Positions 29,378-59,345 of a stretch of DNA of 64,000 nucleotides are shown in pieces (the first letter of the stretch is position 1; the number at the start of each line of letters is the position of its first letter). The stretch is from Candidatus Bathyarchaeota archaeon (lineage in GTDB: Archaea; Thermoproteota; Bathyarchaeia; Bathyarchaeales; Bathycorpusculaceae): the NCBI GenBank assembly GCA_963715865.1, contig OY970280.1, forward strand, positions 160,001 to 224,000, written 5' to 3'. A program made the position numbers and the translations under genes. The notes beneath the pieces are model-generated. The model was not told the origin of the DNA and ran no database searches. It saw only the letters and a program-made list of their open reading frames with translations.

Positions 29378-29856
29378 GCACTTTTGCAAGTAACCGTTTT
29401 TTGACTAAATTTTTTCCTCAGCATTTGTATTATCAAATTTTTTTCAGGCTCTTGAAATGTAATCTATTATTACTCTTCATCTTGAATATTCATAGAATCA
29501 TACTTGTATGTCTTGAATCATGTATACGCCTAAACCCGACCTGTTTTTTCCAAATTTATGCAGATCTATCAGAGTCTATGAGATAGGTGAGAGAGTAGGA
29601 GTTCAATCAGCGTACAAACGGATTAACCTCCGAATCAGCTCAAAATGATTCTGGATTATGCTGACGAAATAGGAATTTTACGACCACAAATAATGGCTTT
29701 TCGAAAACTTGGTGTATTATTTTTCCGAATGCTCTTCTTGGCGGAGTGCCCCATTTTCCCTTGTATAATTTGCAGTTTCGTTTCCAGTCTTTCCCTGAAA
29801 AACATATGTAGCACTTTTCCGACTGAAGGCTTTTGTATCTCTATTAACATTAACAT

Positions 29857-30228
29857 ATGGTTGAACTCTGCGGAGAGAACTTGATGAATCTATCCAAGAT
29901 TGAGGATGCTGCTACTCTGATTAAAGTACTGCGCGAAATGGGGATGAGTTATCAGGAAACCGTGAGCTTGTTGAGCACGTCCCTGAATGAAGCAAAGGGA
30001 GCTAAGAAACTGTTTAGAGGAGAAAACAAAGGACCCATTTCACCACTGATCAAGTTAGGAATAACCGTTTTTTTGGTTCCAGTGCCAGTTATTAGCGAGA
30101 GTCTTGGAATCATATTGATGTCCGCTGGAGTGTTTCAATCCAAGGTTAAAGGACCGCCGATTCAAATCGAGGATGTGTACGAAACGTGTCAACAAATTAC
30201 CAAAGAACTAGGAAAAATGAAACTCTAG
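29857..30228 (+). CDS. Hypothetical protein with a hydrophobic hairpin
   Basis: 123 aa ORF; LGITVFLVPVPVISESLGIILMSAG. Confidence 0.6.
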   Translation: MVELCGENLMNLSKIEDAATLIKVLREMGMSYQETVSLLSTSLNEAKGAKKLFRGENKGPISPLIKLGITVFLVPVPVISESLGIILMSAGVFQSKVKGPPIQIEDVYETCQQITKELGKMKL

Positions 30229-30305
30229 TTTGGCGTGAACGCATCAGAATTGTTAAGTGAAAGTTTTTAAGTGCTGGCAATTAAGAATTTTTAGGGTGAT
30301 AAGAA

Positions 30306-31682: not shown

Positions 31683-31730
31683 ATTTGAACCCTCATGACA
31701 GCGGAGATGTCTCCCGCAAACCCCTTTTTT
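31683..31730. repeat. Dispersed ~48 bp repeat, copy 1
   Basis: atttgaaccctcatgacagcggagatgtctcccgcaaacccctttttt. Confidence 0.85.
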
Positions 31731-31831
31731 CTTCTTTGGAGGTTCAAAGGGAACCATAGAAACTCGCGTGCTACTCATGTAGTATTGCAACTCTAAAAGT
31801 TATTAAACAAAGATTAACATCACAAATTGTT

Positions 31832-32263
31832 ATGAAACCAAACGAAGGCAGACTTCAAACTGCAGAGCACATTCTTGCAAGGACGTTGGAACGAAGGTTT
31901 TCGGACGCAAAATTCATCATTGCTAAGTTTGAAGAGAACTCTGGATATATGGAAATTGCAACCAAAGAGGACTTGCGGAAAATCAACAGAGCATTACTGC
32001 AGGATGACGTGAACGCACTAATAAAGAAGAATCTTTTGGTTAGCAAACACATCCTGACGAGGGAAGATGCCGAAAAAGAATTTGATTTGACAAGGTTGCC
32101 GTCTTCCGTGAGAAAAGTCAGAATCGTAGAAATCGAGGGTTTTGACAAAACACCATGCAAGGATCCGCATGTCGAAAACACAGGCGAGATTGGCTATTTT
32201 GCAATTCTTACGGTGGAAAGGGTTGGGAAAGACCGTTACAGATTTGTTTTCGAAGTAAGATAA
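31832..32263 (+). CDS. AlaX-like free-standing tRNA editing domain
   Basis: QTAEH (HxxxH variant), VRIVEIEGFDKTPCKDPHVENTGEIG. Confidence 0.8.
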   Translation: MKPNEGRLQTAEHILARTLERRFSDAKFIIAKFEENSGYMEIATKEDLRKINRALLQDDVNALIKKNLLVSKHILTREDAEKEFDLTRLPSSVRKVRIVEIEGFDKTPCKDPHVENTGEIGYFAILTVERVGKDRYRFVFEVR

Positions 32264-32355
32264 GAAAAAGTTTCTAAATTCACTTAGTTTTTAATTTTTT
32301 CGATTAGCGGCGTATACTATCATCCTTTTTTCTCAAGCTGGATTATAATCTCGTT

Positions 32356-32868
32356 CTAGATTATGTAACATTTCAAAACTCTTTGGAGGTTCTTGGGAGT
32401 TTCCATTAATTGCCTTAGCATTTTCAGGACCTCAGGTTGAAGTCGGCAAATATCCTGCAGATTTATCAAGCCAATCAAGCGGTTGTCATTGATAACAGGA
32501 AGGTTCTTTATTTTTTTCTCAAACATAATGCGTGCAGCCTCCTCCAAATCCACGCTGGGTCCAATAGTCACCAAAGGGCTTGACATTATTTCCTTCAATT
32601 TTGTCTCCACAGAGTTCTTATCCTCTACAACTATACGTTTCAGGATATCTCTCTCAGTAAGGATTCCTATTGCCTTTCCTTCGGCGGTTACAATTACTGC
32701 ACTCACGCCTTCTTGAGCCATAATTTCTGCAGCTTTCTTAGCGGATACATTCTCGTCAAGAGTAATGACTTCCCTGGTCATAACATCTTCAGCTTTCATG
32801 GGAATTACGAATTTTTCTTCCGCCCCATTTTCAGATTCATCCTCAGACACGAAATCACCATGACTCAA
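32356..32868 (-). CDS. Stand-alone CBS-pair protein
   Basis: AEDVMTR, GILTERD, IKNLPV. Confidence 0.9.
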   Translation of the reverse strand: MSHGDFVSEDESENGAEEKFVIPMKAEDVMTREVITLDENVSAKKAAEIMAQEGVSAVIVTAEGKAIGILTERDILKRIVVEDKNSVETKLKEIMSSPLVTIGPSVDLEEAARIMFEKKIKNLPVINDNRLIGLINLQDICRLQPEVLKMLRQLMETPKNLQRVLKCYII

Positions 32869-32980
32869 GCTGTTGACGGTTCTAGAATAAAAAACATCTC
32901 ATGTTATCGCTTCTTTTTTAGTCCTCGCTTCCCTTATCAAACTCACAACATCCCCGCACGTGGGCTAGTAATTTTTCCTT

Positions 32981-33030
32981 ATCGAACCCTCAGTCAGGTG
33001 GAGATGTCACCCGCAACTCCTCCTTTTTTT
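32981..33030. repeat. Dispersed ~48 bp repeat, copy 2
   Basis: atcgaaccctcagtcaggtggagatgtcacccgcaactcctccttttttt. Confidence 0.8.
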
Positions 33031-33327
33031 GATGATTTGGTGTGTCTTGAAGAGCATGCACACAATTACTAATTGCTTTTTTCCACCAAGAGTTTAATCG
33101 CTGTTGAAATCACAAAGAATCAATCTATTGAGGCCTAACTTGTCTGCAAGTATTGGAATACCTGTGCCTCTAAGTATGTCCCCTTTTGAAACAACTCGGA
33201 AAAAGATCGATAGATATGGCGCGAATTAGGGAAAATGCTCGATCACAGGCTTGGAAAATCAGCATTCCTTTGATGTGAATAACATATAAATAAAATCACA
33301 ACATGTTATTATTGGGGGTATTCTATC

Positions 33328-34842
33328 TTGCAGTCCAATCGGTTAATAGCCTACAACATCTTGGAGAAGAACATAATTAGGAATGGTTTTTGCACAGGTT
33401 GCGGAGCATGTGAAGCTGCCTGTCCAATGTCTGCTTTACATGTCGAAGATGAACAAGTAAAGCGACTTTACGATTGTTCAGAGAGCTTGGATCTCTGCAC
33501 GGTATGTTACGAAATCTGTCCACACTCAGAATTTTTGTTGCTGAGAAGCCTAGAAGCCGTTTCTGAAGCTCCTCTAAGAAGCGAAGCGTTAGGCTATTTT
33601 AGAAAAATCTTGCTTGCACAATCAAATGATCCAAAGATCAGGGAAAAGAGCCATGACGGTGCCGTTGTCACATCATTGCTCATGTTCGGATTAAATAACA
33701 AAATGTTTGATAGCGCGATAGTTTCTCCAACAGAGGATGCAAATCCTCTTAAACCCATACCTTCTGTCGTTTCGGTACCAGACGACATCTTCTCTTCAAT
33801 AGGCAGCAAGTTCTTTCCATCAGCCGTCGTTAAGGCTTATGGAGATGCGGTGCTTAGATTTGGGAAGAAAGAGATCGCTACGGTTGGAGTCCCATGCCAT
33901 ATTCTCGGTCTTCGCAAAATAGATGCATGGAAACACAAAATTAGCGGAAAATCAAAAATATCTATCGGGCTTTTCTGCTTCGGAACCTTTTCGTCGACCG
34001 GACTGTTTAGATATTTGACAGAAACTTACAAGGTGGCTCCTTCAGAAATCAGAAAAATGTACCTTTCTCACGATTTTATGGTGGAAACAGAGAAAGGCGT
34101 TATTGAAATCCCATTGTCAAGAATAATGCAGTATGTTCTGCCTAGTTGTAGAACATGCATTGATTTAACTTCCGAAGTCGCGGATATATCTATTGGGAGT
34201 GCATATCCGCTGAAGGACTGGTCTGTCGTGATAATTCGCACCAAATCGGGGGAGGACTTCTTTTTCGATGCCGTAGAAAAAGGCGTGATCAACACCAGGA
34301 GTATTGAACAGGAGCCGAAGGTATTCGAACGTGTCATCATAGCTGCGCTCAATAAGAGAACCGCGGGATTCGTGGAGGCGAGCAAGCTAGAAGAAGCCAA
34401 CAGTTTTACTCCGGTACGATTGCTGAGGGAGACAGACGAACTTGCTGGTGTAAAAGTGGAAGATATAATGACAAGGAGAATTAGGACGGTGCCAAGTGAC
34501 ATGACTGTCAGTCAACTCTTGGATTTAATGGCAGCTGAGACACATATCGGCTATCCAGTTGTCAATGAAAATGGTGAACTATCAGGCATAGTAACAATCG
34601 AGGAAGCGTCTAAAGTAGACAAAACTAACAGGTGGAAGACCTCCGTCGGAAGCATTGCGAGGCAGAATGTGGATGTTTGCTTTCCGGGAGAAACAGCATT
34701 GGATGCCTTCAAGAAAATGACCGCTCAAGAAACTGGAAGAGTGCTTGTTTTGGATCCTGCGGACCCGAAACAATTGATTGGAATAATTAGCAAGAGAGAC
34801 CTGATGCATGTATTGATAGAGCGAGCATGCAAAAAACGCTGA
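33328..34842 (+). CDS. FrhB/FdhB-family protein with N-terminal 2x[4Fe-4S] ferredoxin and C-terminal CBS pair
   Basis: CTGCGACEAACP, CTVCYEICP, DGAVVTSLL, VGVPCH, IGLFC, CRTCID..ADISIGS; CBS: VEDIMTR, GIVT, GIISKRD. Confidence 0.88.
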   Translation: MQSNRLIAYNILEKNIIRNGFCTGCGACEAACPMSALHVEDEQVKRLYDCSESLDLCTVCYEICPHSEFLLLRSLEAVSEAPLRSEALGYFRKILLAQSNDPKIREKSHDGAVVTSLLMFGLNNKMFDSAIVSPTEDANPLKPIPSVVSVPDDIFSSIGSKFFPSAVVKAYGDAVLRFGKKEIATVGVPCHILGLRKIDAWKHKISGKSKISIGLFCFGTFSSTGLFRYLTETYKVAPSEIRKMYLSHDFMVETEKGVIEIPLSRIMQYVLPSCRTCIDLTSEVADISIGSAYPLKDWSVVIIRTKSGEDFFFDAVEKGVINTRSIEQEPKVFERVIIAALNKRTAGFVEASKLEEANSFTPVRLLRETDELAGVKVEDIMTRRIRTVPSDMTVSQLLDLMAAETHIGYPVVNENGELSGIVTIEEASKVDKTNRWKTSVGSIARQNVDVCFPGETALDAFKKMTAQETGRVLVLDPADPKQLIGIISKRDLMHVLIERACKKR

Positions 34843-35068
34843 GATAACGCCCGGGGAATATAAGTAGCATAGAACACAAGTTTGTCAGTCATTTTTCATT
34901 TGATAAAACCAATCACAGCGATAGAATAAGGAACAATTCTTTCTTGCTATTCTATCGATAGTGCTGTAAATTTGCGATTTCAATGGGAACAAAACCTTTA
35001 GAAAACGCAAATGACAACTGCCACGAAAATTTCTTTGAGTACTTGGGTGTTGAGTTGGTGATGTTGAA

Positions 35069-35131
35069 GTGGACCAGAGGGGATTTGAACCCTCACCACA
35101 GTGGAGATGCACCCGCAAACCCCTCTTTTTT
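35069..35131. repeat. Dispersed repeat copy 3, fused to the reverse complement of a tRNA-Ala-like 3' end
   Basis: gtggaccagaggggatttgaaccctc; reverse complement gagggttcaaatcccctctggtccac (T arm plus acceptor strand); then ggagatgcacccgcaaacccctctttttt. Confidence 0.8.
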
Positions 35132-35274
35132 CTTTTTTAATAGTTACTGAAAAAGAGCAAAAAGAGATAATGAAATGGCCTACTTTAGATTTATGCTATC
35201 ATTGGACGCTGCAAACGTGCCGGTCTCGTTAAAAAAATGTTAAATATTTTGACGAGAAAGAGAATGTGTTGATT

Positions 35275-37475: not shown

Positions 37476-37501
37476 TGGTGGGGTGGCCGAGATTTAAACC
37501 C
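37476..37501 (-). other. tRNA 3'-end remnant (att-like; Pro/Trp-like acceptor, identity uncertain)
   Basis: Minus strand gggtttaaatctcggccaccccacca: T loop, T stem, acceptor strand, CCA; no 5' half nearby. Confidence 0.6.
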
Positions 37502-37588
37502 AAACGGGTTCAAGCCGCGTTTTCAGAAAAGCGAATTTCCCTTCTAAATTATATACAGAAGGAGGTATGGCAGAAACCGCGGAACTGG

Positions 37589-37623
37589 AGATCCTTGAAC
37601 CCAAAAGGGTTCAAAACCTTATT
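37589..37623. repeat. 35 bp exact inverted copy of 59231..59265 with an internal hairpin
   Basis: agatccttgaacccaaaagggttcaaaaccttatt; arms ttgaaccc/gggttcaa. Confidence 0.9.
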
Positions 37624-38275
37624 CAAATGAAAAGGATAATCTTCTCGTCTCAAATAGGAGCGGGCGGAAAAGAAGACTGACAACTCTGCTAATAAAATGT
37701 TAAGAATTATCCTCCAAAAGCGGGTCCGATGGGATGCGCTTAAAGTATTAAGCGAATCCTAAACGCATCCAATTTTGAGATACATCGAACGGTTATTCTG
37801 TGCCACCAACTCAGATTAAAATTTGGTTTTCGTGGTCCTCGTTTATGTGCCATGCTATAATGCCGCACTCCGCAACTTTTGGATGAAGGGGGCGAACAAG
37901 AGAAGGAGCTTAAGAGCAAGTGCTCGCCTAAATTTCAGCGCAGAAGATATAGCATCGCACTTAAAAAACTACAGATAATACAATTTTGATGTTGAGAGAT
38001 ATTTTTTTAGAAACCGACTTTGTACCATCCTTCGCTGACTCGTAGAAGAAAGTGAGGTGCATATGAAAGTTCCAACGTGAGCTTCAGAGAATTGATCAAG
38101 AAGCAATGAAAGAAAAGAGGTCGCGAAGTGAAGGGATAGAACTTCATTTTGGGACCATTTTTCTTTAACACAGTGAATCCGATTGAACTAAGCAGAGGAA
38201 ATTAGATTCTCAATAATTGTAGCCAACCAGCAAAGACGACCGCAATTGATCCATTAGAAAATAGAGATCCAAGGA

Positions 38276-38773: not shown

Positions 38774-39698
38774 TATGCTCTATGAGCGTCATGTCCATAT
38801 TCGTACTCATTCCGTAGTTCAGTGTTGCCGATTGCATCGAAACCGTTTCTTGCATGCTTGATTTTATCTGCCGCATTGTTCCATATTCAATGTACATTTG
38901 GGAGTTCATATCTAAGCTAATTGTGATATTGGCTGGTGTAAAGTTGCTTAAGCTGCCCATTGGCGAGTTGTAGTTCATCTTTAGATTGTTACTAGTTATG
39001 TCGATTCTAAATACCTTGAATGTTCCTGCGGGAACCGTAAGGTCTTGTATGCCTTTGAAGGTCATCGTTAAGTCTCCGGTTATCCCAATGCTTGAATTGC
39101 CACTGGGAAAGGGAACCTCAACTGAGTCTCCAACTTTGACCTCTGGCTTGCTTAATAGTTGTGCAAGATAAGAGGTACTTGTAACGCCATCGTTAGGTAT
39201 CTCTTGTTGTGTACTTCCAAGGTTAAGCAGATACGCTGAATACCCTGTCTTATTCATCTTTTCAGTTAATGAGATGCTTAACGGTTTGCTGTTCGTGCTC
39301 AAAGTCATTGTGTGGTTTAAAGTATAGTATTCACCGTCGAAACCAGTTACTTCGATTGTTTGCTGCATGTTTATACTTGTATTATTTGGAAATTGAGAAG
39401 TTATCCCTGTTGGCAAAGCCGAATTACCATATTGAAAAGAACTGGTCATTGTAGCATCATAAACCATCTTCTCTCCAACGGTATAGTTGACGTTAAGTGG
39501 TATTGAAGCGGCTCCCTGCGGAATCAGCAGAGTGACCGCAAGTATCAAAATTGCAATAATTGCAAATATCATAAAGTAGATTTTTCTTCCAGATAATCGA
39601 CGTTTCGGAGCCGATGATGTCTTTTCCTGTCCTATTGATGAAGGTGATTCCCAAGAACCTTCAGACAATTTAACTTTGAAGTTTTTCATATCACTCAC
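38760..39698 (-). CDS. Single-pass membrane-anchored Ser/Thr-rich exported protein
   Basis: N-terminal TM, then YTVGEKMVYD and LTVPAGTFKVFRI beta-rich domain. Confidence 0.75.
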   Translation of the reverse strand: MSDMKNFKVKLSEGSWESPSSIGQEKTSSAPKRRLSGRKIYFMIFAIIAILILAVTLLIPQGAASIPLNVNYTVGEKMVYDATMTSSFQYGNSALPTGITSQFPNNTSINMQQTIEVTGFDGEYYTLNHTMTLSTNSKPLSISLTEKMNKTGYSAYLLNLGSTQQEIPNDGVTSTSYLAQLLSKPEVKVGDSVEVPFPSGNSSIGITGDLTMTFKGIQDLTVPAGTFKVFRIDITSNNLKMNYNSPMGSLSNFTPANITISLDMNSQMYIEYGTMRQIKSSMQETVSMQSATLNYGMSTNMDMTLIEHIAPS

Positions 39699-48351: not shown

Positions 48352-50072
48352 AAAAAATGAAAATTCCAAGAAAACAATATTTAGACTTGTATGGCCCCAC
48401 AAAAGGCGATAAAATCCAATTAGCAGACACAAACTTGGTCATTGAAGTAGAAAAGGATTGTACGTCTTTCGGCGATGAGTTGGTCTTCGGCGGTGGAAAG
48501 AGCGCTAGACAAGGAATGGGTTTATCGGATGGCACCACACAGGCAGATGGAGCTCTTGACCATGTTATCACCAACGTTGTAGTGTTGGATGCAATATTGG
48601 GTGTTGTAAAAGCTGACATAGGCATTAGAAACGGGATTATCGCTGGAATTGGAAAGTCTGGAAATCCAAACACGATGGATAACGTCACTGAAAACTTGGT
48701 GGTAAGTAACTCCACCGAAATAACCGCTGGAGAAGGACTGATAGCTACCGCTGGCTTCTTTGATACACATGTACACATGATATCTCCACAGCAAGTATTC
48801 CATGCCATAGGAAACGGCATTACAACATACGTTGGTGGAGGCACAGGACCTGCCGACGGAACAAACGCGACCACCTGCACACCAGGACCTTGGAACATGA
48901 GAAAAATGATTGAAGCAATTGAAGGATTACCCATCAACTGGCTAATCTTGGGTAAAGCTAACGATAGCAGAAAAGAAACGTTAGTTGAAGAACTTGCCGC
49001 AGGCGCTGGAGGATTTAAAATGCATGAAGACTGGGGCGCGACTAGGGCATCTTTGGACACCGGTTTAAGTGTTGCAGACGAATATGACGTTCAAATAGCG
49101 ATACACACGGATTCACTCAACGAGGGAGGCTATGTTGACGATACTATAGACGCGATAGATGGAAGGACTGTACACACCTATCATACAGAAGGCGCAGGAG
49201 GAGGACATGCTCCAGATATAATGAAAATAGCTGGAGAACCAAACGCATTACCATCCTCAACAAACCCAACAAGACCATACACCGTCAATACCATAGATGA
49301 ACATCTCGACATGGTCATGGTAACCCACCACCTTAACCCAAAAGTTCCAGAAGACGTCGCCTTTGCCGAATCAAGAATCAGAGCCGAAACCATAGCCGCG
49401 GAAGATGTATTCCATGATTGGGGCATTCTTAGCATGTATTCAGCTGATAGCCAAGCAATGGGCAGAACAGGAGAAGTTTCAACCAGATGCTGGCAGACTG
49501 CACACAAAATGAAAGCACAGTTTGGCAAACTACCTGAAGACGCCCCCGGAAATGACAACTTTAGAGTTTTGAGATACTTAGCCAAGCTTAACATAAATCC
49601 AGCAATAACCAACGGCGTTTCCGATTACGTAGGCAGTCTTGAAAAAGGAAAAATGGCTGACATAGTACTATGGGACCCAAGATTCTTTGGGGCAAAGCCA
49701 AACATAGTTTTCAAGGGAGGCTTCATAGCCTACGCAATGATGGGCGACCCCAATGCTTCAGTTCCACCAGTCGAGCCGATATTTTTCAGACCAATGTTTG
49801 GGGGATTCGGTTTAGCAAGATTGACAACATCGGCACTATTCACATCAAAATTAGCAATTGAAAATGGCATCAAAGAGAAATACGGCATACAACGCCAAGT
49901 TCTACCGGTACACAACGTCAGAAACTTAGGCAAACAGCACATGATACGGAATAGCACACTCGGCGAAATAAAGATTGATCCTGAAACCTACAAGGTCACT
50001 TTCAACGGTAAGATGGTAACGTGTGAACCTGCAAAGGAATTGCCATTAACTCAGCTCTATCATCTAGTATAG
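48348..50072 (+). CDS. ureC: Urease alpha (catalytic) subunit
   Basis: [46 protein letters not shown]. Confidence 0.98.
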
Positions 50073-59230: not shown

Positions 59231-59265
59231 AATAAGGTTTTGAACCCTTTTGGGTTCAAGGATCT
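59231..59265. repeat. 35 bp exact inverted copy of 37589..37623
   Basis: aataaggttttgaacccttttgggttcaaggatct. Confidence 0.9.
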
Positions 59266-59345
59266 ATGGGATTTGACCCCCAAAATGGGGTAGGAACCTA
59301 CATCTGAAAAATTGTCCACTTTCAAGAAAACAATGGAAAAAGCTG

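Follow-up and report, generated by a model that had tools for sequence, protein, structure and literature searches.

Three direct repeats that lie between genes in the 64-kb stretch of archaeal DNA analyzed here (the window) are probably attR-type junctions left behind by tyrosine-integrase elements that were stacked at a tRNA end and have lost their integrases. They would thus delimit a patchwork island built from acquired genes and represent neither a new RNA nor an integron, and the mobile elements behind the junctions would be relatives of tailed archaeal viruses. All three copies are found on the + strand (31683-31737, 32980-33034 and 35083-35137). A 23-nt degenerate pattern matches the 64 kb only at these copies, with 0.05 matches predicted from shuffles. 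In agreement with the original prediction, made from the letters of the window, the copies share one orientation, are intergenic and bracket two gene units, [AlaX-like + CBS] and [FrhB-CBS] (units a and b). Each copy has a two-part anatomy, namely a decayed piece of an antisense tRNA 3' end and a conserved motif of ~35 bp in which GTGGAGATRTCNCCCGC is followed by a short stretch of A/T and then by runs of C and T.

In copy 3, an antisense tRNA-Ala(TGC)-type 3' end spans 35060..35100 (+) and can be divided into 3' flank (35060-35069), discriminator and acceptor (35070-35077), 3' T stem (35078-35082), T loop (35083-35089), 5' T stem (35090-35094) and a spacer to 35100. It is followed by the element arm (35101..35131, +) with the motif GTGGAGATG-CACCCGC, from which one base is deleted, the tail AAACCCCTC and T6. 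That this copy starts as an antisense tRNA-Ala T arm and acceptor had been proposed before; its best alignment is to the host tRNA-Ala(TGC), and the match extends into the native 3' flank of that gene. In copies 1 and 2, the tRNA piece is reduced to the T-loop and 5' T-stem part. The remnant of copy 1 (31683..31700, +) comprises the antisense T loop ATTTGAA (31683-31689), the antisense 5' T-stem strand CCCTC and a 6-nt spacer, lacks the acceptor and 3' T-stem part and adjoins an arm (31701..31730, +) made up of motif GCGGAGATGTCTCCCGC (31701-31717), tail AAACCCC and T6. Copy 2 retains a partial antisense T loop TCGAA, CCCTC and a 6-nt spacer (32982..32997, +), with motif GTGGAGATGTCACCCGC (32998-33014), tail AACTCCTCC and T7 in its arm (32998..33030, +).

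Unit a carries an AlaX-like gene with a tRNA_SAD domain (143 aa; 31832..32263, +) and a gene for a CBS-pair protein (170 aa; 32356..32868, -), and the cargo of unit b is an FrhB/FdhB-CBS fusion gene (504 aa; 33328..34842, +). These cargo genes resemble housekeeping genes and have no viral or plasmid hallmarks; a PHROGs search with the neighboring small ORFs gave no diagnostic match. The left cores of both units are truncated and stop at the T loop. Unit b has the arm motif at its left and a full Ala-type core at its right.

A genome-wide search identified ~27 copies of the motif in the 2.35-Mb genome of the host archaeon, an organism found in peat metagenomes, so the window copies are not the only ones. 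In about 14 of these, the motif is joined with unvarying spacing to the antisense 3' end of a tRNA (Ala, Cys, Leu or Arg/Gly-like), and the matches extend into the native 3' flanks. Several of these fused copies are located downstream of the intact cognate tRNA gene and in the same orientation, specifically at +1.6 kb from tRNA-Cys, at +5.5 kb from tRNA-Leu(TAG) and at +0.9, +8.8 and +9.5 kb from tRNA-Ala(TGC). A direct repeat of the 3' part of the target lies downstream, again in the same orientation, of all three of these tRNAs and of tRNA-Leu(CAG) in the relative G238. Searches for the motif were positive in 22 of 41 relatives and in several families (control matches: 0). Of 12 families sampled across the order, at least 9 have it (reversed control: 0 matches), and it is fused to a tRNA end in 43 of the 301 genomes of the order. 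Other genomes contain same-orientation arrays of 2-5 copies with unrelated cargo. The arm is kept across elements with differing cores, including several tRNAs, an intergenic site and the 5' end of a polymerase gene.

In three complete elements, the motif lies at the integrase-distal end, 7-10 nt away from the att core. Two are tailed proviruses of the host. Provirus 1 (1680088-1719921) is bounded on both sides by the 14-bp core ATAATTACTTATCC, with the motif 10 nt inward of the right-hand copy, and provirus 2 (563805-599891) has the core ATCTTCCATTTAGA, from which the motif is 7 nt inward. The integrases of the two are homologous tyrosine recombinases, and in both proviruses, as well as in the G238 element, the integrase is encoded at the end opposite the motif and beside the intact target. 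The latter element was predicted beforehand and then confirmed: a tRNA was expected beside an integrase encoded 22 kb from a motif copy, and a 23.5-kb element was found at tRNA-Leu(CAG), with 72 nt separating the 3' end of the integrase gene from the tRNA gene and with a 35-nt repeat of the tRNA 3' end, containing one mismatch, 7 nt from the motif. In elements of this kind, a small Zn-ribbon protein is encoded directly inside the motif. Further, an IMG/VR contig encoding an HK97-type capsid protein and having genes in common with each of the two proviruses starts 12 nt before a motif copy. From these complete elements and the viral contig with the motif near its end, we therefore infer that the window repeats are attR-type junctions. 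Co-occurrence of motif and integrase is uninformative in this respect, because 219 of the 301 genomes contain the integrase family, frequently in more than one copy.

The idea of a recombination site tied to cassette accretion at tRNAs was essentially right, the site being an att-type junction of integrase-driven elements. A tyrosine integrase, for which a search had been suggested, is encoded in proviruses 1 and 2 and in the G238 element; beside the window units, no integrase remnant was detected (28-38 kb searched). As the window also contains no intact tRNA gene, its three copies, with no complete element in place, were assigned to the family by sequence and architecture and are best described as putative members.

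The anatomy, the family and the position at the ends of intact elements being observed, we hypothesize that the right part of each repeat (~35 bp) would be the arm of the element itself, 5-10 bp from the recombination core and opposite the integrase. The left part would be duplicated target, reaching from the T arm to the tRNA 3' end plus a few flank bases and running antisense on the + strand. Elements would have been stacked by successive integrations at one tRNA end (tandem accretion), and subsequent decay and deletion would have removed the integrases and most element genes, leaving short integrase-less units such as [AlaX + CBS] and [FrhB-CBS] that start with the arm motif and end with the next T loop. 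As copies 1 and 2 have no acceptor part, an extra deletion or a secondary-site event has to be assumed for them. Strand exchange likely takes place in the T loop. The near-palindrome GGNGAT-ATCNCC may bind a protein, either the integrase (through its arm domain) or an accessory factor, and/or belong to the control region of the terminal operon of the element, and the T run might act as a DNA bend or as a stop for read-in transcription.

T runs are an archaeal termination signal and every copy ends in one of 5-8 T, features that would also suit a structured small RNA or a dedicated + strand terminator consisting of a 5' antisense tRNA end, a hairpin and a U tract. An outer hairpin is possible in copy 3, where the pairing gaggggatttg/caaacccctc noted originally is indeed present, but it occurs only there and is unconserved. 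RNAalifold analysis of 41 copies yielded -0.18 kcal/mol with four invariant pairs and no compensatory changes, the variable positions of the palindrome show no covariation, and for all three window copies neither strand folds better than shuffles (z-scores of -1.0 to +1.2). No hairpin terminator was flagged, the orientation of the repeats is independent of that of the adjoining genes, and the T stem in the tRNA parts is disrupted by decay mutations. We thus consider an RNA or terminator very improbable. Nothing in Rfam matches the repeat, in line with the original remark that it was not recognized as a described family (Rfam 15 at the gathering threshold; three window copies and six other loci).

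Read on the minus strand, a leader precedes the T arm and the 3' strand of the acceptor, as might be expected for the 3' half of a split or permuted tRNA gene, and a multicopy, intergenic repeat could also be a transposable MITE/REP-like sequence. Neither ARAGORN nor the Rfam tRNA model calls a tRNA at any copy, though, and full-length cognate Ala, Cys and Leu genes exist elsewhere in the genome. An identical leader in front of differing tRNA identities would, moreover, defeat specific pairing of halves. Against a MITE/REP-like sequence, and against the non-autonomous element originally suggested, the copies lack terminal inverted repeats and target duplications and occur singly, in one orientation per array and with no inverted partner. 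Both readings are largely refuted and have a close to negligible probability.

Three other functions were considered and rejected. The variable positions of the motif resemble codon wobble (AGDIS on one strand, GDVTR on the other), but frames are broken within a few codons, a start codon is absent and the lengths of tail and spacer are not constant (differences of 1-2 nt). A role as terminator of the integrase gene when the element is excised does not hold generally: the integrase frame of provirus 1 would run through the motif without a stop, and the integrase of provirus 2 ends ~175 nt before the core. An ORB-like origin box was discarded by reasoning only, given the opposite polarity of the G run relative to the dyad and no clustering around an orc gene.

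It had also been proposed to follow the flanked genes in relatives, where they proved not to be syntenic. In the closest species (G001), synteny is confined to the part rightwards of window position 38776 and the repeats are absent there. Relatives share at most 66% identity with the FrhB-CBS fusion of unit b and lack the flanking motif. Among other metagenome strains, the sequence left of 32998 varies and the interior to the right is 99.4-100% identical. Specifically, a contig from run X1 is 100% identical to window positions 32998-34145 with a different tRNA fragment at its left, a contig from run X2 (99.4% identical) has a third, different left neighbor, and the contigs of X2 and X3 end at 35089, within the T loop.

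These differing left neighbors and T-loop ends would also agree with integrase-less units that are still mobilized in trans by integrases encoded elsewhere. Such active cassettes, functional analogues of integron cassettes or cis-mobilizable elements, would be excised between neighboring T-loop cores and reinserted at other cores, with the arm motif serving as a handle. This reading overlaps with that of integration scars, the sole difference being whether the units are alive or dead, and it gains from the recurrence of same-orientation arrays in other genomes and from the wide distribution of the integrase family. However, the circular junction that had been suggested as a check was not seen: joints that 'go back 2095' are due to reads cross-mapped from other copies, because the linker CGTCTACA belongs to a copy near 1740327. 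Contigs from mixed metagenomes cannot distinguish site-specific movement from homologous exchange at the 19-nt motif. The strain-variant break coincides with the outer edge of the motif (32998), not with the T loop, and fits homologous exchange between motif copies and site-specific exchange equally well. Scans of JGI metagenomes yielded no close relatives of the cassette and no FrhB-CBS protein above 69% identity, and a metagenome scan with an exact 30-mer of copy 2 returned 0 matches. In addition, the tRNA parts have decayed, and half of the presumed core is missing from copies 1 and 2. Ongoing mobilization is therefore rather unlikely. It is similarly doubtful that Bathyarchaeia have a living cassette system with the arm motif as its handle, served in trans by virus-type integrases at tRNA T-loop cores; if true, proviruses would drive integron-like shuffling of host-type metabolic and translation-related genes across an archaeal order.

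Stacked integration scars have counterparts in the tandem accretion and cis-mobilizable elements (CIMEs) reviewed for tRNA and tmRNA genes (PMC5704250) and in Dehalococcoides genomic islands that are linked to ssrA (PMC3146451). In those systems, as here, site-specific integration into the 3' end of a small RNA gene leaves a direct repeat each time, and older, decayed elements lose the integrase and keep their att sites as new ones stack, resulting in att-bounded arrays of cargo. In contrast, the present case is archaeal (Bathyarchaeia) and involves tailed proviruses instead of conjugative elements, an arm motif of ~35 bp is conserved across differing cores and an order, and the left cores of the window units are degraded. 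No description of such a conserved arm motif was found in the literature searched. The mechanism is expected and the host group is new, with no new principle involved. A tRNA T-arm class of integration sites was reportedly defined by Williams in 2002; here, too, the duplicated block reaches from the T arm to the 3' end, and the core is probably the symmetric T stem-loop, whose loop would be the overlap region, with the putative crossover position derived from breakpoints.

The integron likeness raised originally stands as a loose analogy, in that same-orientation repeats bound short units with unrelated cargo and no recombinase inside. Unlike integrons, the array has no IntI or other integrase in or beside it, no R''/L''/L'/R' architecture or attC boxes with GTTRRRY ends and no conserved pairing or folded-strand structure; its genes occur in either orientation with their own promoters, not as co-oriented promoterless cassettes, and the repeats hold pieces of target genes. 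SSV-type 'suicidal' integrases of hyperthermophilic archaea, in which attP lies inside the integrase gene and splits it upon integration (PMC7253208), likewise belong to archaeal, tRNA-targeting elements that leave trapped integrase-less islands (gene capture), but the motif described here is non-coding and the integrase remains whole at the other end.

One widespread family of integrative elements and proviruses in Bathyarchaeia can be recognized by the ~35-bp arm motif at the integrase-distal ends. The motif allows base-level mapping of element borders and old scars in metagenome-assembled genomes, where provirus borders are usually guessed. Extra housekeeping-type genes (AlaX, CBS proteins, FrhB-CBS, TBP and an SSB-like protein) sit in accreted, strain-variable islands, a location relevant to metabolic reconstructions and gene flow in uncultured archaea. 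The FrhB-CBS gene of unit b is such an extra, divergent paralogue with a second genome copy at ~902.9 kb, and gene content at the tRNA-Ala(TGC) hotspot differs between two genomes (G000 and G015). Within the window, further antisense tRNA-3'-end scars with other junction types (37478..37745, +) have the same orientation as the three repeats and are part of the same accretion zone; 141 nt of this region are 96% identical to a locus at ~886 kb.

The three window repeats, each a decayed antisense tRNA 3' end joined to a conserved arm motif of about 35 bp, all lie on the forward strand (copy 1, 31683-31737; copy 2, 32980-33034; copy 3, 35083-35137). A degenerate 23-mer matched these three sites only, against 0.05 matches expected from shuffles, and the three same-orientation copies of the original prediction are therefore real. 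The bracketed genes also match their first description, namely an AlaX-like tRNA_SAD protein gene (31832-32263, +), a CBS-pair protein gene (32356-32868, -) and an FrhB/FdhB-CBS fusion gene (33328-34842, +). ARAGORN called no tRNA in the window and no Rfam match was found at the three copies.

The host genome is a single contig of 2.35 Mb with 42.8% GC and intron-containing tRNAs, and the window stretch is present in metagenomes of peat, wetland and freshwater sediment. Genome-wide searching identified about 27 motif copies consisting of the core GTGGNGATRTCNCCCGC, a short A/T stretch, a C run and 5-8 T. About 14 of these ~27 are joined at a constant distance to an antisense tRNA 3' end (10 nt between T loop and core), with tRNA identity varying among copies (Ala, Cys, Leu and Arg/Gly-like) and similarity continuing beyond the tRNA into the native flank 3' of the cognate gene. 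Fused copies are found downstream of the intact tRNA, in the same orientation, at 1.6 kb for tRNA-Cys, at 0.9, 8.8 and 9.5 kb for tRNA-Ala(TGC) and at 5.5 kb for tRNA-Leu(TAG). The rest of the ~27 carry non-tRNA sequence where the tRNA piece would be. The motif also exists beyond this genome: its 19-mer version is present in 22 of 41 relatives and in at least 9 of the 12 sampled families of the order (reversed control, 0 matches). Of 301 genomes from the order, 43 carry the fused form, with a span that is almost always 35 or 36 nt.

Intact elements carry the same motif at one end. Provirus 1 (39.8 kb) is bounded by a 14-bp core, ATAATTACTTATCC, at 1680088 and 1719908, with the motif 10 nt inside the right-hand core and the T run facing the provirus interior. 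Provirus 2 (563805-599891, ~36 kb), located via a motif copy 36 kb from an integrase homologue, has the 14-bp repeat ATCTTCCATTTAGA at 563805 and 599878, and its motif lies 7 nt inward of the right core. The provirus sits in a Y-family DNA polymerase (Dpo4/DinB-like) gene, targeting its 5' end within the first codons; at the junction, the 5' end and upstream region of this gene have been replaced. The related genome G238 has an integrase of the same family and, 22 kb away, a motif copy joined to a tRNA-like end. An intact tRNA was predicted on the opposite strand just past this integrase and was confirmed as tRNA-Leu(CAG), which lies 72 nt beyond the 3' end of the integrase gene. The final 35 nt of this tRNA (6 flank bases included) are repeated, with a single mismatch, at a distance of 7 nt from the motif. 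The IMG/VR viral contig L084 encodes an HK97-type capsid protein as well as genes common to both proviruses. The two proviruses and L084 share the order core, 7-10 nt, motif, T run, 50-95 nt and small ORF, the core of L084 being off-contig as the contig starts 12 nt before the motif. The small ORF encodes a Cys-rich protein of 50-78 aa (two of the three contain CxxC pairs) and is followed by larger genes in the same direction. Based on both proviruses, the G238 element and L084, the motif is therefore an element-borne arm beside the recombination core, at the integrase-distal end, and the tRNA-like part of the repeat is the duplicated target. Reading the repeat as a recombination site for tRNA-targeted accretion was thus essentially right, while the integron reading was not. 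The mechanism is already known; what sets this case apart is that the arm motif is conserved order-wide and that, in Bathyarchaeia, host-type genes are stacked in units lacking an integrase.

A small-protein family is encoded directly after a motif copy and T run at 235132-235335 (-), 709439-709672 (+) and 726055-726504 (-) of the host genome. Its members have 67-77 aa, with one 149-aa form, and an N-terminus containing ADRVKRKLPSLL; two members tested had no Pfam match. These proteins may be regulators or accessory factors carried by the elements.

A structured RNA or terminator, also proposed originally, is not supported. The 41-copy alignment has no consensus structure (RNAalifold -0.18 kcal/mol, 0 compensatory changes), the predicted folds of the three window copies are no more stable than those of shuffled sequences, whichever strand is taken, and no hairpin terminator was called. 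The two variable positions of the near-palindrome GGNGAT/ATCNCC do not covary. Coding was rejected as well, frames across the motif being short and without starts, with spacer and tail lengths differing by single bases. A tRNA half was likewise rejected, the sites being called by neither the Rfam tRNA model nor ARAGORN. The near-palindromic form of the motif, with uninformative central flanks, together with its fixed distance to the core and its conservation across elements with unrelated cores, points to a putative binding site for a dimeric protein common to the family, which could be the arm-binding domain of the integrase or a small accessory factor. This putative site may also serve as an operator region for the terminal operon, and the phased A/T run could act by bending DNA or by halting transcription that comes in from the chromosome.

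On the forward strand, each window motif opens a unit extending rightwards to the next T loop. The FrhB-CBS unit ends at copy 3, where the Ala(TGC)-type core is complete and has its flank. The left cores of the AlaX + CBS and FrhB-CBS units (copies 1 and 2) break off at the T loop, which requires later deletions or secondary-site events. No integrase remnant was detected at 28-38 kb of the window. FrhB-CBS is an extra paralogue with a second genome copy at 902.9 kb; its best relatives elsewhere share 56-67% identity over the full protein (a match to a partial contig reaches 69%), and the motif flanks none of the 13 genus homologues retrieved. A second, longer AlaX-type gene (235 aa; 478612-479319, -, of the host genome) is the immediate neighbour of the motif copy linked to tRNA-Cys; the presence of AlaX paralogues beside two separate repeat copies may be coincidence or recurrent cargo.

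Mobility was assessed by comparing contigs from four metagenomes with the region. In one metagenome a contig is 100% identical to 32998-34145 with a different, complete tRNA fragment as its left neighbour, and in a second a contig is 99.4% identical over 32998-35089 with yet another left neighbour; contigs of this second metagenome and of a third stop at 35089, within the T loop. The same interior thus has at least three left junctions, which shows recent exchange at motif or T-loop boundaries. This exchange could be either site-specific or homologous recombination between copies of the motif. These contigs contained no circular junction, apparent ones being cross-mapping from other copies, and ongoing trans-mobilisation of the units seems unlikely.

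The surrounding ~24.7-38.7 kb of the window has low coding density, mainly small ORFs and several scars. It looks like one strain-specific accretion island because synteny with G001, the closest species in the set, begins only at 38776 and continues rightwards, a part in which G001 has no motif. Large flanking genes are patchy within the genus, and cargo at the tRNA-Ala(TGC) hotspot differs between species, comprising a TBP, an SSB-like protein, a glycosyltransferase and a CBS protein in the host genome and two ~1000-aa PQQ-repeat proteins and a DDE transposase in G015. The array presents the same picture as bacterial tandem accretion with decay to cis-mobilizable elements (PMC5704250). A 410-bp segment at 29824-30232, containing a 123-aa ORF without family match, is 90% identical to a segment directly inside the motif copy at ~647 kb, suggesting that the DNA upstream of the three repeats includes shared sequence of element origin.

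More scars, with other junction types in the same orientation, are found at 37.45-37.75 kb. These scars (37478-37745, and 37590-37625 on the minus strand), like one at 59236-59300 (+), belong to other tRNA-3'-end scar families, in which the T arm is joined to a short inverted self-copy, e.g. GGTTTTGAACCC-TTTT-GGGTTCAA, or to GGGTTCAAGCCGC. Their recurrence at ~886, 1732.5 and 1736.7 kb of the genome suggests at least two further element families, each with its own arm beside a T-arm core. Lastly, window positions 48504-48805 (-) match the Rfam family 5_ureB_sRNA (50.6 bits, gathering score 40), which was described from bacteria and is unexpected in an archaeon; the match may merely reflect conserved urease coding sequence.
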